Positions 29,112 through 37,366 of a stretch of 64,000 bases of DNA are shown here, one piece after another; positions within the stretch are counted from its first letter, which is position 1, and every line of letters begins with the position of its first letter. The stretch lies in the NCBI GenBank assembly GCA_963809895.1, contig CAWELD010000010.1, positions 32,001 through 96,000 of the forward strand, written 5' to 3'. The translations under genes and the position numbers were made by a program. Source of the stretch: an uncultured Gemmatimonadales bacterium. GTDB lineage: Bacteria; Gemmatimonadota; Gemmatimonadetes; Longimicrobiales; Gaopeijiaceae. The notes below the pieces were generated by a model. That model did no database searches. It was not told where the DNA came from and saw only the letters and a list, made by a program, of their open reading frames with translations.

Positions 29112-29447
29112 TCATCCCACGTTCCCGAGAAGGTCCGTCAGGTCGCCGATCATGGCCCGGATGGCGCCAGTGGTGGCGCGGACCGCGTCGACGCCGGCCG
29201 GCTCCACGGTGACCAGCCTCGGCGGCCGTCCACCGCGTTCGGGACGGGGCTCGCCCAGCCGGGAGCTGAGCAGGCCCTTCTCTTCCAGGCGCTGCAGCGT
29301 CGTGTAGACGTTCGCGCGCCGCACCGAGCGGCCGGTGCGGGCCGCGATGTCCTCGGCGATGGAGACCGTGTAGGCCTGGTCGGGCCCCAGGCGCAGCGCG
29401 GCCAGCATCACCAGGAGCTCGAACTCGGCGAGGGAATCGGAAGGCAT
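29112..29447 (-). CDS. PadR family transcriptional regulator
   Basis: LAEFELLVM...VYTTLQRLEEKG...PERGGRP. Confidence 0.88.
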   Translation of the reverse strand: MPSDSLAEFELLVMLAALRLGPDQAYTVSIAEDIAARTGRSVRRANVYTTLQRLEEKGLLSSRLGEPRPERGGRPPRLVTVEPAGVDAVRATTGAIRAMIGDLTDLLGNVG

Positions 29448-29678: not shown

Positions 29679-30332
29679 TCAGTTCGTCAGTGCCGCCACC
29701 ACCGAGGGCGGCACGATCACCTGGTTGACGAGGTGGATGATGCCGTTGCTGGCCGGGAGGTTGGGCTCGACGATCGACGCATCGTCCCGCACGCCCAGCG
29801 CCGTGAGGCCGTCTTCGATGGTGCCGTCGGGTCGCACGGCGAAGGACTCACCCAGGAGCGTCGGCATGGTGCGCATACCGTTCGACGGAAGGACGCTGTT
29901 CGCCGCCCGCCGGCCGGGGCTCACGTGGTAGAGGAGCACGTCGAGCACCACCTGCGGGGGCAGGTCCGTGATCTCGTCGATCGGCTGGCCGAGCACGACC
30001 GTGAGCAGGCCGTAGAGATCCTCGAAGGCCGCGTCGGTGGGCGCGAACACGGTGTGCTGGTTGGTGCCGTTCATGAAGAGGTCCACCAGCTCGGTGCCGA
30101 GCTCGCTGTCCACGTAGCTCAGGGCTCCCACCAACTCGGTGAGTCCGCGGTCGATGGCGATCTGCGCGATGGGGTCGGATCCCTTCTTCGGCGACGCCTT
30201 GGGATTCCGGACGTCGGGTGCGGCGGCCAGTTCGGTAGCGGGTGCGGTTTCGGGCGCGGCGGGCAGGTCCGAGCAGCCGGCGAGCGCGACGGCTCCCAAC
30301 AAGCTCAATGAGAAGAGGCTCGGGCGGGTCAT
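29679..30332 (-). CDS. Fasciclin (FAS1) domain lipoprotein
   Basis: LAGC lipobox, TVFAPTDAAF, LLYHV, ASNGIIHLVNQVI. Confidence 0.9.
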   Translation of the reverse strand: MTRPSLFSLSLLGAVALAGCSDLPAAPETAPATELAAAPDVRNPKASPKKGSDPIAQIAIDRGLTELVGALSYVDSELGTELVDLFMNGTNQHTVFAPTDAAFEDLYGLLTVVLGQPIDEITDLPPQVVLDVLLYHVSPGRRAANSVLPSNGMRTMPTLLGESFAVRPDGTIEDGLTALGVRDDASIVEPNLPASNGIIHLVNQVIVPPSVVAALTN

Positions 30333-30606
30333 ACGTCCTCCTTGCGTCGATGTGAGGGCGGAGAGGTGCGTACAGGCGATGTCCAACATTTTGGCGGTAT
30401 GTCGAGGATTTGTCAAGCATGAACTTCGACAACAGTTGGACGACCTTTCGCCCACATCGCACGCCGAGGGGCCGGACGGCGTTTCCTCGTCGAGCGTTGG
30501 AACGTCCGGAAGTGTTTCATGGAACTGACCCGCGCGACGCCCGCAGAGGCTCGTGAAGCGCTCTCCGGCCCGTGGTTATGCGCCATCCAGGGCGGGTATG
30601 CGCCTA

Positions 30607-30621
30607 CGGCACGCGCGTTGC
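30607..30621 (+). promoter_or_regulatory. sigma54 (-24/-12) promoter
   Basis: CGGCACGCGCGTTGC = GG-N10-GC, 48 nt before ATG 30669, with a GGAGGAGG RBS. Confidence 0.65.
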
Positions 30622-30668
30622 CCCTATCTCGCATGCGTTCCAACCAGACTCATGGAGGAGGTAGTCGC

Positions 30669-32435
30669 ATGCGTTTCGATGTCCGACGAGTGTTCGTGGG
30701 CTTGCTCGCCGTCACCGCGCTGGCCGCGTGTAACGACGACGACGGCATGATGCCCGAGATGCCCCTGAACCCGAGCACGGCTCCCAGGGCGACCATCGAC
30801 CGTTTCAGTGACGATGCCGCGACGCTCTTCAAGCGGAGCGCCATGGCGTCGCTGCCGGCGGCCGGCGTGGCCATCGACTTCGACCAGGAGCCCTTCATCA
30901 GCCACGGGCTGGGTCCGGCCGGTCAGCCGGTCCACTACTACAACTTCGATGTCATGCCCACGGCGCCGGCGCCCATTTTCGTGTTGTTCCGCGAAGGCGA
31001 GTCCATGCCGGTGAGCGGTCAGCTGAACCTCGTGAGCGTGATCCCCGGTGATGCCGGCTACAGCGATTTCTGGCAGGTGATGAAGGTCACCGTGCCGGCC
31101 GACTATGTCGCGAACACCATCACGAGCGTCGACGAGCTCGTGGCGGCGGGATACGACACCGAGACCACCGACATGATCGTGAACTGCCCCATCGTGCCGG
31201 AGGGCTCCACGGCCAGCGAGGGTCCGGGCGCCAACGGCCTGACCCAGGGCTGGTACGAGGACCAGGTGGTCTTCTACTTCAACTTCAACGAGGCGCCCAT
31301 CACGGCGACCGCGGCGGGCGAAGTGCCCACCAGCGACATCTTCGTGAGCTTCAACGTGAACCCCGACGAGACCGGTGGCGGCCCCGCCTCGGGCTTCATG
31401 ACCCAGGGCACGTCTGCTCAAACCCACAACGTGGTGGAGACCCTTCCCGGCGACGCCGCCTATTCGCCGCTCTGGGACGTGATGCCCTACGACAACGCCG
31501 CCTTCGACATGGTCCACGATCTGTCGTCGGCACAGGCTGCGGACAACTTCGGCCTCGCCGCCGTGGTGAACTGCCCGATCGTGTTCGTGGGCGAGACGCC
31601 CGGCAATGCGGAGACGGCCACCGAGGCCGTCATCGATCGATTCAGCGACGACGCGGGTGCCCTCTTCCGGCGGAGCGCCAACGCGGGCCTCCCGGGTGCG
31701 GGTGAGCCCATCGACTTCGACATGGCGCCCTTCATCACCCAGGGCCTGGGTCCGAGCGGGCAGGTCGTCCGCTACTACAACTTCGACGTGATGCCCACGG
31801 CTCCGGCGCCCATCTTCGCCCTCTTCTACGAGAGCGGCGGGCCCGTGCCCGGCCAGCACAACATCGTCGACGTGATTCCCGGCGAGGCGGGCTACAACGA
31901 CTTCTGGCAGGTCGTGAAGGTGACCGTGCCGGACAGCTACATCGCCAACTCCGCCACCAGCGTGCAGGACCTGGTGGACGCCGGCTACGACATGGAGTAC
32001 ACGGACATGCTGGTGAACTGCCCCATCGTGCCCGACGGCTCCACCGCCGAGCTCCGTCTGGGAGGCGAAGACAACGGCCTCACCACCGGATGGCACGACG
32101 GCGAGGTCATCTACTACTTCAACTTCTTCGAGGCGCCCCTGTCGGTCACCGGTGACGGGATGGTGCCCACCAGCGACATCTTCGTCGCCTTCAACATCAA
32201 CCCGGACCAGCCGGGCGGCGGACCGGCCTCGGGCTTCATGGTCGAGACCGGCACCATGCAGACGCACAACGTCGTCGAGACCGTCCCGGGCGATGCGCTC
32301 TATTCGCCGCTGTGGGACGTGATGCCCTACGACAACGCGGCATTCAACACAGTGACGAACCTGGCGACCGCGCAGGCGGCCATGAACTTCGGCCTCGCCG
32401 CGACGGTGAACTGCCCGATCGTCTCCATGCAGTAG
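30669..32435 (+). CDS. Lipoprotein with a tandem duplication, each half holding two Y(S/N)x(F/L)W...VNCPIV sub-repeats (DUF7482-like)
   Basis: LAAC lipobox; two about 275-aa halves both beginning IDRFSDDA; four VNCPIV motifs. Confidence 0.85.
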   Translation: MRFDVRRVFVGLLAVTALAACNDDDGMMPEMPLNPSTAPRATIDRFSDDAATLFKRSAMASLPAAGVAIDFDQEPFISHGLGPAGQPVHYYNFDVMPTAPAPIFVLFREGESMPVSGQLNLVSVIPGDAGYSDFWQVMKVTVPADYVANTITSVDELVAAGYDTETTDMIVNCPIVPEGSTASEGPGANGLTQGWYEDQVVFYFNFNEAPITATAAGEVPTSDIFVSFNVNPDETGGGPASGFMTQGTSAQTHNVVETLPGDAAYSPLWDVMPYDNAAFDMVHDLSSAQAADNFGLAAVVNCPIVFVGETPGNAETATEAVIDRFSDDAGALFRRSANAGLPGAGEPIDFDMAPFITQGLGPSGQVVRYYNFDVMPTAPAPIFALFYESGGPVPGQHNIVDVIPGEAGYNDFWQVVKVTVPDSYIANSATSVQDLVDAGYDMEYTDMLVNCPIVPDGSTAELRLGGEDNGLTTGWHDGEVIYYFNFFEAPLSVTGDGMVPTSDIFVAFNINPDQPGGGPASGFMVETGTMQTHNVVETVPGDALYSPLWDVMPYDNAAFNTVTNLATAQAAMNFGLAATVNCPIVSMQ

Positions 32436-32463
32436 ACCCCGACCACAACCAACAGGTGGACCG

Positions 32464-32492
32464 GCCGGGGGCGGGAACGTCCCGCCCCCGGC
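32464..32492. terminator. GC-rich intergenic hairpin (terminator or mRNA-stabilising stem)
   Basis: 13-bp stem gccgggggcggga/tcccgcccccggc with no U-tract. Confidence 0.5.
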
Positions 32493-32518
32493 ATGGGCCC
32501 CCTGCACCCTGACGAATC

Positions 32519-33704
32519 ATGATCAGACGACTCACGCTGGCCCTGGCGTTGACGATGCTCGGGGGATGGAGTCCCGCAGCTGGGGCCCAGAGCGTCGTGG
32601 CCCGCTCCCCGAACATCGCGGGGGGCTGGACGGCCGCGCCCGGTGTCATCCAGCTCAACTTCCTGCACCGGTTCAGCATCAGCGATCCCCCACTCCGCAA
32701 GATCACCAACACCCCCACCTTCAACGTGGGCACCGGCGTCACCGGCAACGTCATGGTGGGATTCGTCTACGGATCCAACTCGAGGCTGGTGCCCGCGTAT
32801 CCGAACGAATGGGAGTTCTACGCCCGCGCGCTCCCCGTGGCCCAGGCCCGGGGTGCCCCGCTGGATGTGGCCGTGCAGGGTGGCTACAACCTGGCCTCCG
32901 AGAGCATCGACGGAGAGCTGCTCCTGGCCCGGGGTCTGGGGAGGGTGCGGCTGTTGGCTGCAGGGCCGCGCCTTCTCGGAGGCCTACGCCGGTGACGAGA
33001 GCCGCTTCGCCGTGACCGGAGGGGCGGCGCTCAGCCTCACGCCCCGCGTGGCGCTGGCCGGCGACTACGGCGTGCTGCTCGACCGGTCCGAGGACGAGCG
33101 TCCGGCGTGGAGCGCCGGTCTGCAGGTGGGCGTGCCCTACACGCCCCACAGCTTCTCCATCCACGCCACCAACGTGGGGACGGCTTCGCTCGAGGGAACG
33201 TCCCGCGGGCTCCGCACCCGCTGGGGCTTCGAGTACACCATCCCCATCACCGTGCGGCGCTACGTGCCGTCGGGTGGGGACGGCGACGACAGCGAGGACA
33301 TGGCGGGGGCCGCGGCTGGTGGGATGGAGGCCGCTGCCGCCATGGACATGACCGATTCCGCCGCGGCCAGCGGGGCGATGGGCGAGTCGATGGGCGAGTC
33401 CATGGCCGCGGCGGACACGGTGTTCGTGGACATCAAGAACCTCGCCTACGGCAAGGAGCGCATCGAGATCACCCCGGGGACCACCGTGGTGTGGCGCAAC
33501 ATGGACCCCATCCAGCACTCCGTGACGAATCCCGATTCCATCTTCGACTCCGGGCTCATCGATCCCGGCAAGTCCTTCACCTGGACCTTCGCCGACCAGG
33601 GCACGTTCCCGTTCCACTGCGTCCCTCATCCCTTCATGAAGGGCACCGTCGTGGTGTCGGGCATGCGCGAGTCCAGTTCACCCAGTGAGGGAGGTGCGCC
33701 ATGA
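32519..33704 (+). CDS. Secreted beta-barrel-like (DUF5777-like) domain plus Met-rich linker plus cupredoxin; one frameshift at about 32965
   Basis: Signal peptide, FLHRF motif and amphipathic strands in ORF 32519; C-terminal HSV...CVPHPFM type-1 copper site in ORF 32643-33704; joined by removing one base in gggcc. Confidence 0.75.
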
Positions 33705-34066
33705 GCAGGAGTCGTGGATGGATTCTGGGGCTGGCGCTGGCCACGGCGCTGACGATCCCGCTGGCCTGCAGCCAGCACACGGATCCCATGGAGCCCAGCG
33801 GCGGCGACGTGGTGGAGATCGAGATCCGCAACTACGAGTTCTCGCAGCCCGAGCTCCACATCGAGCCGGGGACCACCGTGCGGTGGAAGAACACGACGAA
33901 CACCTACCACACCGTCACCCCCGACGGCCACGACGCCTGGACGCAGTGGCAGACGGCCAGCGAGGGGCAGACCTTCGAGGTCACCTTCAACGTCGCCGGG
34001 GAATATCCGTACTACTGCATCCCCCACCGCTCGCTGGGCATGATGGGGACGATCATCGTGGAGTGA
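33701..34066 (+). CDS. Plastocyanin/halocyanin-like blue copper lipoprotein
   Basis: PLAC lipobox, HTVT...YYCIPHRSLGM; ATGA overlap with the upstream gene. Confidence 0.9.
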   Translation: MSRSRGWILGLALATALTIPLACSQHTDPMEPSGGDVVEIEIRNYEFSQPELHIEPGTTVRWKNTTNTYHTVTPDGHDAWTQWQTASEGQTFEVTFNVAGEYPYYCIPHRSLGMMGTIIVE

Positions 34067-34086: not shown

Positions 34087-34270
34087 GCAGCCCGCGTCGG
34101 TGCCGAGTCGGGGCGCGGGCTGCAAAGTCCTCGATTATCATGGGGAATGCAGCCCGCGGCACCGGCGCCATCGTCGGGGGCTGCAAAGCCCTGGATAATC
34201 ATGGGGATCGCAGCCCGCGCTCCCGGGCGCCCGCGTCGCGGGCTGCAAAGACCATGATCGTGATGCGGGG
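34087..34270. repeat. Tandem array of about 45-bp palindromic-ended units with 16-17-bp variable linkers (REP/BIME-like)
   Basis: cgcgggctgcaaag.cc..gat.atcatgggga..gcagcccgcg at 34114 and 34175; partial copies at 34087 and 34237. Confidence 0.8.
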
Positions 34271-34390: not shown

Positions 34391-34726
34391 ATGGCTCCTG
34401 ACCGCTCGTCCGAGGTCCTGCGCGGCACCCTGGACCTTCTGATCCTCAAGACGCTGGCCGTGGAGGCCATGCACGGGTGGGGCATCAGCCAGCGCATCCA
34501 GCAGCTGTCCGACGGCCTGCTGGACGTCAATCAGGGCTCGCTCTATCCGGCGCTGCAGCGGCTGGAGGAGCGGGGTTGGGTGAAGGGGAAGTGGGGACGC
34601 ACGCCGGAGAAGCGGCGGGCGCGCTACTACCATCTCACCCCGGTGGGGCGCCGTGCCCTGGGAGAGGAGACCGCGAACTGGCGGCTCTACGTGGGTGCGG
34701 TGGAACAGATCCTGGGTGCGAGCTGA
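34391..34726 (+). CDS. PadR family regulator (Acidobacterial type)
   Basis: LRGTLDLLILKTL...HGWGI...QGSLYPALQRLE...RARYY.LT. Confidence 0.93.
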   Translation: MAPDRSSEVLRGTLDLLILKTLAVEAMHGWGISQRIQQLSDGLLDVNQGSLYPALQRLEERGWVKGKWGRTPEKRRARYYHLTPVGRRALGEETANWRLYVGAVEQILGAS

Positions 34727-34735
34727 GGCGGGGGG

Positions 34736-37366
34736 ATGAACGTCTTCATCCGGCTGCTGCGGCGGGCGCTCTATCTCCTGCGTCGCCGCTCCATGGACGA
34801 GACCATGGACGAGGAGATGCGTTTCCACATCGACATGGAGACGGAGAAGAATCTCCGCGCCGGGATGGGCCCTGCCGAGGCACGGCGGGCGGCGCTGGTG
34901 GCGTTCGGGGGTGTGGAGCGGCACCGCGAGGCGACCCGCGAAGCGCGTGGAACCGCGCTGGTGGAGAGCGTCGTGCGCGACGGCGCGCGGGCCTTTCGCA
35001 ACATGCGCCGGGCGCCGATCTCGACCTTCACCGCGGTGACGTCGCTGGCTCTGGGCCTCGCGGCGACGGCGTTGGTTCTGGTCTTCGCCGAGGCCTTCCT
35101 GCTTCGCCCCCTGGACGCGCCGGATCCGGATCGCCTGGTCTCGTACGAGGAGGACCACGTCGGGCCGGGCGGCAACTCGCAGAGCGGCCACAGCGGGGTG
35201 GCGTACGCCCGCTACCGGCAGATGGCTGCGGCCGCGGCCCCGGTGGCGGACCTCGCCGCGTACACCTACGACGGCGTGTCGCTCGTGGCCGACGGGCAGG
35301 CCTCGGCCGGCATCGGCACGCGCGTGAGCCGGAACTACTTTCGCGCTCTGGGCCTGCGGCCTGCCGTCGGGCGGTTCTTCGAGCCGTCGGACGAGGGCGA
35401 AGGGGGGCCGCCGGAGGTGGTGCTGAGCGCGCACTACTGGCGCACGGCGCTGGGCGGGGACCCGGACGTGGTGGGACAGTCGATCCGGGTGGACGGGCGC
35501 CCGCACACCGTGGTGGGCGTCGCGCCCGAGGGCTTCAATGGCGTGCTTCTCGGGCTGGCCTCCGAGGTGTGGGTGCCCGCGGACCTGTGGGTGTACAGCG
35601 CCGACGGATCGCGCCGTCCCCATCTGGCGGTCTTCGGCCGGCTCACTCCCGGAACCACGTCCACGGCAGCGACGACGGCCATCGACCGCGTCGCCCGGTC
35701 CCTTCCACCGGAGGTCGAGGGGTCCGAGATCCGTCGCGCGTGGCTGGATCCCCTGACGCCCGTGCCTGAGGCCTTCCGCGGCTCGGCCGTGAGCCTTCTG
35801 GGGATCCTGCTGGCCATGGCGGGACTGGTTCTCGCCGTGGCCGCCGCCAACGTGGGAGGCATCCTCCTGGTGAGGGCCGCCGGCCGCCGCCGTGAGGCCA
35901 CCATGCGCATGGCGCTCGGCGCACCCCGGGGGCGGCTGATCCGCACGTTGGCGACGGAGACGCTGGTCCTCTTCCTGGCCGGAGCGGCCGCCGGTCTCGT
36001 CCTGGCGTTCTGGCTGGCAGGGGTGGTCGAGGCCTATCACCTGCCGGTGGCGGTGCGGGTGGCCGTCGACCTGTCGCTGGACCTCCGGGTCGCCCTGGTC
36101 GCCGTGGGCATCATGCTCCTGGTGGGCCTGACGCTGGGATGCGTCACCGGCGTGCAGGCCACCGCCCGGCTCGATGCCAACGCCTTGCGCGGGGGGTGGG
36201 CCGGCGAGCCTCCACGGTCCATTCGCTTGCGTCGGATCTTCGGGGTCGCGCAGCTCGCCGTGACCGCGGTACTGCTCTTCTCGGGAGGCCTCTTCGTCCG
36301 GACGGTCCAGCGGGCGCTGGCCGTGGACCCCGGCCTCGATCCCGCGGGCCTGGTCATGGCGCCGGTATCGCCCGGCGCCGCGGGCTACGGACCCGAGGAG
36401 TCCGAAGCGTTCATCGCTCGGCTGCTGGAGCGGCTGCGCGCGCGGCCGGATCTGGAGGCCGCCGTGGCGCGGACGGCTCCGCTGTCCGGGGGCGTGAACT
36501 CGGACGACATCGAGCTCGCCGACGGCCGCACCGTGCCGACCCACTACGGGTGGGCCGAGGGCGCTTGGTTCCAGACCGCCGGGGCCCGCATCGTGCGCGG
36601 GCGCGCCTTCGGACCGGACGAGGCACGGGACGGGACGGCCCCCGCGGTCATCAACGAGAGTCTGGCCGCGAGGCTGTGGCCCGGGGAGTCCCCTCTGGGG
36701 CGGACGTTCAGGTTGCGAGGCGTGGATCGCACGGTGGTCGGGGTGGTGGCCGACGGCCGCTACCGCGACATGGCCGAGGTGGGTGCGCACTATGCCTTCC
36801 TCCCGTTCCCGGGGCGGTTCGGCTCACCGATTACGGTCTTTCTCCGGAGCAGCGACCGGTCGACGGCGACGGCCGTGGGCGCGTTGCGTGAGGAGTTGGC
36901 CGCCCTGGACCCCGACGTGACGCCCCGCGTCGTGACGCCCATGGAGGATCAGATCGCCTACTTCCTCGCTCCCCAGCGGGCGGCGGGCTGGCTGATCGGG
37001 GTGTTCGGGCTCGTGGGGCTGACCCTGGCCTGCGTGGGGCTCTTCGGAATCACCGCGTTCCAGGTCGCGCAACGCGTGCGGGAGATCGGCATCCGGGTGG
37101 CGCTGGGCGCTCCGCGGGGCCGCGTCGCCAGGGCCGTGGTCTCCTCCGCGCTCCGCATGACGGCGGTGGGATTGATCCTGGGTGTGGTGGGCGGGCTGGT
37201 GGTGAGTCGCCTGGCCTCGCGCTTCCTGTTCGGGGTCGGTCTGGCGGATCCCTGGCTCCTCCTGACGATCCCCACGATCCTGGTGGCGGCGACGCTGCTG
37301 GCGAGCTGGGTACCGGCCCGTCGCGCCACCCGCGTGGATCCGGCGAAGCTGCTGAGGGACGCCTAG
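34736..37366 (+). CDS. ADOP family duplicated MacB/FtsX-type ABC permease
   Basis: permease prefix EEMRFHIDME, two MacB repeats, REIGIRVALGA, PARRATRVDP. Confidence 0.9.
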   Translation: MNVFIRLLRRALYLLRRRSMDETMDEEMRFHIDMETEKNLRAGMGPAEARRAALVAFGGVERHREATREARGTALVESVVRDGARAFRNMRRAPISTFTAVTSLALGLAATALVLVFAEAFLLRPLDAPDPDRLVSYEEDHVGPGGNSQSGHSGVAYARYRQMAAAAAPVADLAAYTYDGVSLVADGQASAGIGTRVSRNYFRALGLRPAVGRFFEPSDEGEGGPPEVVLSAHYWRTALGGDPDVVGQSIRVDGRPHTVVGVAPEGFNGVLLGLASEVWVPADLWVYSADGSRRPHLAVFGRLTPGTTSTAATTAIDRVARSLPPEVEGSEIRRAWLDPLTPVPEAFRGSAVSLLGILLAMAGLVLAVAAANVGGILLVRAAGRRREATMRMALGAPRGRLIRTLATETLVLFLAGAAAGLVLAFWLAGVVEAYHLPVAVRVAVDLSLDLRVALVAVGIMLLVGLTLGCVTGVQATARLDANALRGGWAGEPPRSIRLRRIFGVAQLAVTAVLLFSGGLFVRTVQRALAVDPGLDPAGLVMAPVSPGAAGYGPEESEAFIARLLERLRARPDLEAAVARTAPLSGGVNSDDIELADGRTVPTHYGWAEGAWFQTAGARIVRGRAFGPDEARDGTAPAVINESLAARLWPGESPLGRTFRLRGVDRTVVGVVADGRYRDMAEVGAHYAFLPFPGRFGSPITVFLRSSDRSTATAVGALREELAALDPDVTPRVVTPMEDQIAYFLAPQRAAGWLIGVFGLVGLTLACVGLFGITAFQVAQRVREIGIRVALGAPRGRVARAVVSSALRMTAVGLILGVVGGLVVSRLASRFLFGVGLADPWLLLTIPTILVAATLLASWVPARRATRVDPAKLLRDA

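Follow-up and report, generated by a model that had tools for sequence, protein, structure and literature searches.

A barrel-cupredoxin operon in a Gemmatimonadales genome and its possible place in a proposed envelope regulon against methionine oxidation

We analyzed three adjacent genes in a stretch of 64,000 nucleotides (hereafter the window) from an uncultured Gemmatimonadales bacterium (assembly GCA_963809895.1, contig CAWELD010000010.1, positions 32,001 to 96,000). Gene 1 encodes a lipoprotein related to the family DUF7482, gene 2 a predicted outer-membrane barrel joined to a cupredoxin, and gene 3 a small blue-copper lipoprotein. The fixed three-part copper conduit that a first-pass annotation had envisaged here is unsupported, and what the regulatory sequences suggest is stress from methionine oxidation. 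Our favored account, to which we give roughly an even chance, is that the trio is part of an undescribed envelope regulon directed against methionine-oxidizing stress, its redox parts being thiols and type-1 copper sites. That the trio belongs to the regulon is in itself quite probable, and an oxidant is somewhat favored over copper as the main signal. The features of the trio are real and are unstudied in the literature that we searched: in a search that fell short of most subscription papers, no published work was found on DUF7482, DUF5777, the Gemmatimonad cupredoxin with barrel, the combination of spondin, kinase, and methionine, or the diplonemid DOMON-ferric reductase.

Results

Sigma-54 promoters share a consensus at −24 and −12 and are switched on from enhancers farther upstream. 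A predicted promoter of this kind and a predicted two-box enhancer precede gene 1 (Table 1); the strong box is palindromic and lies 94 bases before the promoter. We compared the upstream regions of the window and of 14 other Gemmatimonadota DUF7482 loci, leaving out locus L038. The strong box occurs in 14 of these 15 regions, a count that is partly circular because the motif was first derived from nine of them, and a sigma-54 promoter occurs in 12 of the 15, 89–102 bases after the box. The window's genome also carries rpoN. Judged from sequence, the promoter, enhancer, rpoN, and NtrC-type activator expected of a sigma-54-dependent operon all appear to be in place.

A strict form of the two-box pattern matched 1 of 10 genomes and was then loosened. 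The pattern occurs at four places in the window's genome, compared with none for the control, and in 25 of 251 genomes of the order, compared with 6 for the control. One of the four places is upstream of the trio. Another precedes genes for an 87-residue lipopeptide with 18 methionines (21%), a cytochrome b561, a molybdopterin oxidoreductase, and a 97-residue lipoprotein with 11 methionines, and a third precedes a lipoprotein of lactonase fold. The last lies between a Cyc2-like gene and a gene pair for a kinase and a sigma-54 regulator of the NtrC family (contig C3 of this genome, G000, 1171628–1174683). Orthologues of this pair (46–49% and 64% identity) flank DUF7482 in loci L003, L007, L010, L012, and L048, and Met-His-Ala is invariant in the periplasmic part of the kinase in 10 of 10 aligned sensors.

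Across the order, we examined 28 further two-box sites, setting aside the window's genome, a duplicate, an array of repeats, and sites lacking a locus. Twenty of them flank the same cargo: spondin at five (one by eye), RskA_C-like proteins at four, lactonase at three, DUF7482 at one, the kinase alone at four, and a canonical msrP-msrQ pair, a Met-rich peptide with a molybdo-oxidoreductase, and a DsbD-like gene at one each. The msrP at its two-box site (L186) scores 449 bits against a cut-off of 207, and a shared motif precedes the Met-rich peptide operons of G000 and L185.

Some genes at these sites deserve separate mention. The peptide operon of the window's genome (L174:13028-14925; G000 C4:221027-222924) resembles MrpX-YedYZ, with different parts. 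The Cyc2-like cytochrome-porin gene (L175:11016-12437; G000 C3:1175015-1176436) is divergent from the kinase and regulator genes and 168 bases from the two-box site; the protein has one CxxCH, and the motif upstream of this is one position off the PXFAR signature. Directly 3′ of the sigma-54 regulator (L175:3385-7008) lie DUF542, a COX1/NnrS-like small protein, FeS_assembly_P, and DUF2249.

A second and independent kinase line is found outside Gemmatimonadota. There, an OmpR-type pair whose kinase carries a periplasmic HSMMxxNP motif (the HSMM kinase) stands beside 22 of 37 DUF7482 loci; DUF7482 adjoins this kinase in Maribellus maritimus (L016) and Mariniphaga sediminis (L021). The HSMM kinase turned up in 48 of 251 genomes in the phylum of G441 and in 33 of 201 in the class of G442, but not in the window's genome. 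Its sensor could not be aligned with the sigma-54-type sensor (probability 1%). In 40 HSMM-kinase regions (the kinase was recovered in 39), the neighbors include spondin (11), DM13 (5), RskA_C-like proteins (5), MsrAB/MsrB (4), and bufferin-type DUF692/DUF2063 clusters (4), and more rarely cupredoxin, redoxin, and DUF7482 modules (2 each), lactonase (1), and a peptide with 22% Met (1). Since these neighbors overlap with those of the sigma-54-type kinase, two different regulators accompany much the same cargo. The cut-off of the heavy-metal kinase model TIGR01386 (292.55) is reached neither by the HSMM kinases (at most 202) nor by the sigma-54-type kinase of L012 (87.5). As a HAMP kinase family with HSMMxxNP (L134-L173), the HSMM kinases are uncharacterized and common in two large lineages.

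The first-pass annotation had read this DNA as three co-oriented exported genes, and our gene, domain, and lipobox calls bear out that anatomy of a lipoprotein, a barrel with a cupredoxin, and a blue-copper lipoprotein. It had put the start of the feature at 30340; the feature is real, and gene 1 begins 329 bases later, at 30669. The best named homologues are from Gemmatimonadota, several of them Longimicrobiales, which points to this lineage for the window's genome.

Gene 1 has a ribosome-binding site at 30654 and a lipobox with Cys21. Its product consists of two units of ~270 residues (30783–31592 and 31617–32432; 68% identity), each made of two ~110-residue modules (mutual identity 28–34%, E about 1e-9). 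The module follows the pattern GWY...YYxF...PIY...GQxNI..PGDxGYSDxW.V...VNCP (the NCP module). As had been noticed, four VNCPIV sub-repeats (at residues 171, 300, 449, and 580; Cys codons 31185, 31572, 32019, and 32412) and the lipid anchor account for the only five cysteines. The protein matches DUF7482 (PF24298) with 54.6 bits against a gathering cut-off of 27.5, the model being covered only in part. The AlphaFold model is confident (predicted local distance difference test, pLDDT, 93.2; predicted template modeling score, pTM, 0.83). It gave no match in the PDB by sequence, Foldseek, or VIA-align when all 588 residues were searched whole, and a query of >400 residues can hide single-domain matches; the ESM Atlas gave no usable match. 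The model suggests that the module may be a new fold, unproven because the search was made with the whole model instead of a single module.

The gene 1 family is large and widely spread. Among 8000 candidates, 984 proteins gave a score for it, and 964 clusters (50% identity) match a profile of one gene 1 unit. Among the named carriers are Bacteroidota, Gammaproteobacteria, Myxococcales, and haloarchaea, most of them at 48–78% identity. We scanned the domains of 47 representatives picked as likely fusions or repeats of the NCP module. In three of them it stands beside DOMON, ferric-reductase, and NAD-binding domains, and in one more beside DOMON; the records name Sulcionema, Papus, Rhynchopus, and Diplonema, which we take to be euglenozoan protists. 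Other fusions carry a cupredoxin (2), a pyrroloquinoline quinone propeller (2), Kelch (1), rhodanese (1), or Lipoprotein_15 (3), and several carry surface-sorting domains (a type IX secretion system tail, FlgD_ig, PKD). This joining of the module to redox domains lends weight to the electron-transfer idea of the first-pass annotation. The DOMON fusions (P0334, P0345, P0369, and P0372) are proteins of 2900–3400 residues with many NCP modules, and three of the four have a ferric-reductase membrane domain.

The module cysteine, the sole conserved soft ligand, is retained in 183 of the 272 NCP modules that have any residue in its column; for His and Met, conservation nowhere exceeds 55%. Its pattern in adjacent modules (CC 47, xC 23, Cx 15, xx 13) indicates independent loss. 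An obligate disulfide between modules was rejected on this ground, and single thiols or a nonessential residue fit better.

Gene 2 carries one extra base at about 32963. In four of four sequencing runs, near-identical contigs (1 to 6 other differences) lack one base there, and homologues are single frames of 360–380 residues, uninterrupted at this point. The frameshift is therefore an assembly error, and the repair made in the first-pass annotation was sound. The gene comprises a barrel (about 32645–33254), a variable linker (33264–33413), and an amicyanin-like cupredoxin (33414–33656). Fold work was done on an intact homologue, P0127, whose model has a 12-strand barrel and a cupredoxin with a disordered linker between them (residues 260–271, pLDDT under 50). 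For the N-terminal domain of gene 2, the model thus predicts an outer-membrane beta-barrel, amphipathic and closed, after a signal peptide. The best structural match is FapF (Z 18.5, root-mean-square deviation 3.1 over 197 residues), followed by the Vibrio oligogalacturonate porin (Z 17.9), KdgM (17.6), COG4313 (16.9), and NanC (16.5), with PcoB at 11.3, in agreement with the barrel first suspected. To DUF5777 (PF19089), P0127 scores 18 bits against a cut-off of 23.1, and 22 of 111 members match weakly (E up to 0.01). No longer barrel fusions (521–2000 residues) were found, which is weak evidence. In P0127 numbering, the barrel invariants are Asn48, His51, Arg52, a PNEWE stretch, and His211 (residues 48–52 and 210–216).

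Both copper proteins have full ligand sets, as had been claimed for gene 2. In gene 2 the ligands are a His at 33516 and C-x2-H-x2-M at 33618–33638; gene 3, which is indeed coupled to gene 2 by an ATGA overlap, has a lipobox with Cys23 and the ligands H70 and C106-x2-H109-x4-M114. PF00127 is above its cut-off in both. With the fold predicted from the intact gene 2 homologue, the His/Cys/His/Met sets mark both as probable type-1 cupredoxins. They share fold and ligands with amicyanin, plastocyanin, and pseudoazurin and differ from these in falling below the NCBIfam cut-offs (42.9 and 59.6 against 110.2 bits for amicyanin TIGR02657), in being fused to a barrel or lipid-anchored, and in having no amine dehydrogenase gene seen nearby. 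The gene 2 domain is nearest amicyanin, its best single-domain match, and the C-terminal domain of a Nitrosopumilus multicopper protein. Among the best 120 barrel homologues, 110 have C-x2-H-x2-M. Both termini of a porin are periplasmic (10.1101/228056) and the cupredoxin follows the last strand, so the copper domain should be periplasmic, which tells against the membrane-spanning conduit of the first-pass annotation. The Met-rich linker stands for the window (7 Met in 50 residues) and falls as a conserved Cu(I) site, since no more than one Met is found there in 79 of the 110 homologues whose linker could be read.

Fifty-two DUF7482 loci were compared, 15 from Gemmatimonadota and 37 from other lineages. 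Within Gemmatimonadota, 10 of the 15 have the barrel and 11 a cupredoxin; elsewhere neither occurs in any of the 37. The trio as a whole co-occurs in 10 of the 15, which bears out co-occurrence at such loci in the phylum. Conservation of the three as a unit is unsupported: of 401 Gemmatimonadota genomes (including the unpublished G213, G116, G234, and G037), 114 have the barrel and 4 a DUF7482 match, and the window's genome alone has both. Among 60 close relatives, none was found to have DUF7482. The trio does not form the core: across the phylum the pair of barrel and small cupredoxin is common, and DUF7482 is rare.

Of the 114 barrel loci, 40 were analyzed, selected for long contigs. A small cupredoxin occurs in 32 of the 40 and a lipoprotein with repeated immunoglobulin-like (Ig) and cupredoxin domains in 6, immediately upstream of the barrel in 5. 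The copper-trafficking setting that had been proposed did not materialize: a motif scan, with resistance-nodulation-division pumps outside its scope, found the P1B-ATPase motif of Cop/Pco/Cus-type systems in 1 of 40 and a multicopper-oxidase motif in none. No respiratory genes recur in the 40 loci. A link to amine dehydrogenases with tryptophan or cysteine tryptophylquinone (TTQ/CTQ) was rejected, as no such genes were seen in the neighborhoods. The Ig lipoproteins (Big_2 plus cupredoxin repeats, up to four C-x2-H-x2-M-type sites) lie 5′ of the barrel in L092, L094, L097, L098, L110, and L114, and in L092, L097, L098, and L114 they are preceded by MarR, glyoxalase-fold, and hydrolase genes. 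Multihaem c7/c3-type cytochromes are close to the barrel operon in a few genomes (L003:10843-13515, L127:1643-3112).

Discussion

In the mechanism that we favor, oxidants of hypochlorite type, possibly together with copper, would be the signal for the regulon. The membrane kinase with its Met-His-Ala motif and its NtrC-family partner would then activate transcription from the two-box enhancer, to which we infer that the partner binds. On the cell surface, the product of gene 1 would present four single cysteines, thiols that could be either sacrificed or recycled. In genes 2 and 3, the type-1 copper domains may act as one-electron buffers and copper sinks, and the gene 2 cupredoxin would be tethered where a pore for small solutes opens into the periplasm. 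The signal and all of this chemistry we infer from the genes and folds and from the company that they keep.

Two precedents support an oxidant signal. In Azospira, MrpX (20% Met) and YedYZ scavenge hypochlorite (PMC4436054), and YedV senses hypochlorous acid (HOCl) via periplasmic Met (10.1101/2021.09.09.459708). The SigF/NrsF-MrpX-YedYZ system of Azospira suillum and HprSR(YedVW)-MsrPQ of E. coli would have in common with the predicted regulon Met-rich periplasmic peptides (21% Met here vs. 20% in MrpX; PMC4436054), a b-type cytochrome together with a molybdo-enzyme that is MsrP or resembles it, and a sensor that has Met in its periplasmic part (PMC4436054; 10.1101/2021.09.09.459708; PMC9302797). 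Unlike these systems, the predicted regulon would use a sigma-54/NtrC-type pair and, as far as the available descriptions of them extend, add DUF7482, barrel-cupredoxin, spondin, RskA_C-like, and lactonase lipoproteins to the cargo.

Several findings weigh against this account, besides the circularity noted above. The sigma-54 promoter alone is weak, with a match in 16 of 100 shuffles of the window, and the number of single boxes does not exceed chance (4 in C3 vs. 1, 2, 0, 0, and 7 in shuffles). Eight of the 28 two-box sites flank unrelated genes or none. A strong box is absent from all of the 40 other barrel loci, so that the barrel pair is usually outside the regulon. The canonical msrP and msrA/B matches of the window's genome have no box, and the co-regulated molybdo-enzyme falls below the MsrP cut-off (97.7 vs. 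207). Gene 1 is not Met-rich (3.7%), and one third of NCP modules have no Cys. Met-His motifs, moreover, also bind Cu(I). Copper could be the signal for that reason and because E. coli msrPQ is also copper-induced, via CusSR (PMC9302797), and bufferins defend against copper (PMC11626156). HOCl and Cu(II) are jointly toxic (PMC7464077).

A role in copper buffering or trafficking seems unlikely to us, if well worth weighing. The regulon would sense Cu(I) via Met and His, the barrel would hand copper to the cupredoxins, and the gene 1 thiolates would bind Cu(I). The two type-1 sites of the trio suit such a role, as do the Met-His motifs of both kinases, the bufferin-type clusters by the HSMM kinase in 4 of 40 regions, and the multi-cupredoxin Ig lipoprotein of 6 barrel loci, directly upstream in 5; PcoB does appear as a match of the barrel, though with a low score (Z 11.3). 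Pulling the other way are the near absence of P1B-ATPase and multicopper-oxidase motifs from the barrel loci (1 and 0 of 40), P1B ATPases of the window's genome that have no box within 600 bases, HSMM kinases that stay below the heavy-metal cut-off, and a Met linker that is not conserved, and the independent loss of neighboring cysteines contradicts an obligate two-thiolate site. OprC/NosA and PcoB/CopB likewise place an outer-membrane barrel in a copper-related setting (PMC7558416). However, gene 2 is too small for a TonB-dependent transporter and its barrel does not have a CxxxM-HxM site, and PcoB matches less well than unrelated porins, with no cop/pco genes near the trio.

Still less probable is a haem-free counterpart of Cyc2, in which a reductant or metal ion would enter the pore, an electron would pass to the amicyanin-like domain, and genes 3 and 1 would relay it. 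Like Cyc2, gene 2 puts an outer-membrane barrel and a one-electron carrier, expected on the periplasmic side as proposed for Cyc2, in one polypeptide (10.1101/228056). The cupredoxin is nearly always on the barrel, one enhancer site of the window's genome lies 168 bases upstream of the Cyc2-like gene, and ferric reductases are among the fusion partners of the gene 1 module. Unlike Cyc2, however, gene 2 has a C-terminal type-1 copper carrier instead of an N-terminal haem c, and neither an N-terminal CxxCH nor the PXFAR[Q/K][T/Y] motif given in 10.1101/228056. The linker is of low confidence and variable length, respiratory genes do not recur, no canonical sigma-54 promoter was found before the Cyc2-like gene, and barrel-only forms exist (L014, P0170). 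We think it very unlikely that the barrel serves as a channel through which neighboring lipoproteins are exported or anchored, which would explain the gene grouping. Its best fold match is the amyloid-secretion channel FapF, and its neighbors are lipoproteins, but the solute porins KdgM, COG4313, and NanC are almost as close (Z 16.5–17.9). With these 12-strand proteins it shares the fold (Z 16.5–18.5) at 8–14% identity, and it differs in the attached cupredoxin. Moreover, DUF7482 occurs without the barrel in all 37 non-Gemmatimonadota loci, and a pore of such size would be small for folded domains.

A bolder extension of the methionine-oxidation regulon is tentative, and we would bet against it. 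The NCP module would be a surface thiol redox domain of new fold, forming the outer end of trans-envelope electron chains in bacteria, archaea, and euglenozoan protists, where electrons would reach it over a ferric-reductase/DOMON wire in the protists and over a porin-cupredoxin relay here. It would belong to a cross-phylum kit against methionine oxidation, together with spondin, RskA_C-like, and lactonase lipoproteins, under two nonalignable sensor kinases.

If the methionine-oxidation regulon is real, it would assign a role at once to several proteins that are widespread and lack a known function: DUF7482, the bacterial spondin, RskA_C-like, and lactonase-fold lipoproteins, and the porin-cupredoxin fusion. 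A further prediction is a pair of new sensor kinases, each with a Met-His motif in its periplasmic part. The signal is probably directly testable, since named species carry DUF7482 beside the HSMM kinase.

Other Features of the Window

The coordinates of the trio and of the features around it are collected in Table 1. The fasciclin gene was rejected as a member of the system, as a homologue occurs in none of the 52 related loci.

Table 1. Features in and around the trio (window coordinates)
Feature	Position	Strand	Basis
Fasciclin-domain lipoprotein, divergent, with its own sigma-70-like promoter (30416–30388); probably incidental	29679..30332	−	
Predicted upstream activator site, two boxes 33 bases apart: weak 30481–30492, strong GTTTCATGGAAC 30514–30525	30481..30525	+	Motif counts
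Predicted sigma-54 (−24/−12) promoter, CGGCAC-N5-TTGC	30607..30621	+	Motif match
Gene 1, DUF7482-related lipoprotein, 588 residues	30669..32435	+	Sequence, Pfam, AlphaFold model
Hairpin between genes 1 and 2, 13 bp, perfect, GC-rich, no U-run after it	32464..32492	+	By eye; putative function
Gene 2, signal peptide, barrel, linker, and cupredoxin	32519..33704	+	Homologues, model, contigs
Gene 3, plastocyanin-like type-1 copper lipoprotein, 121 residues	33701..34066	+	Pfam, ligands

A PadR gene and an ADOP-family permease lie downstream (34391–37366) and a second PadR-like gene upstream (29112–29447), which is ordinary for the lineage. Past gene 3, three imperfect copies of a short palindromic repeat were seen by eye at 34105–34265.

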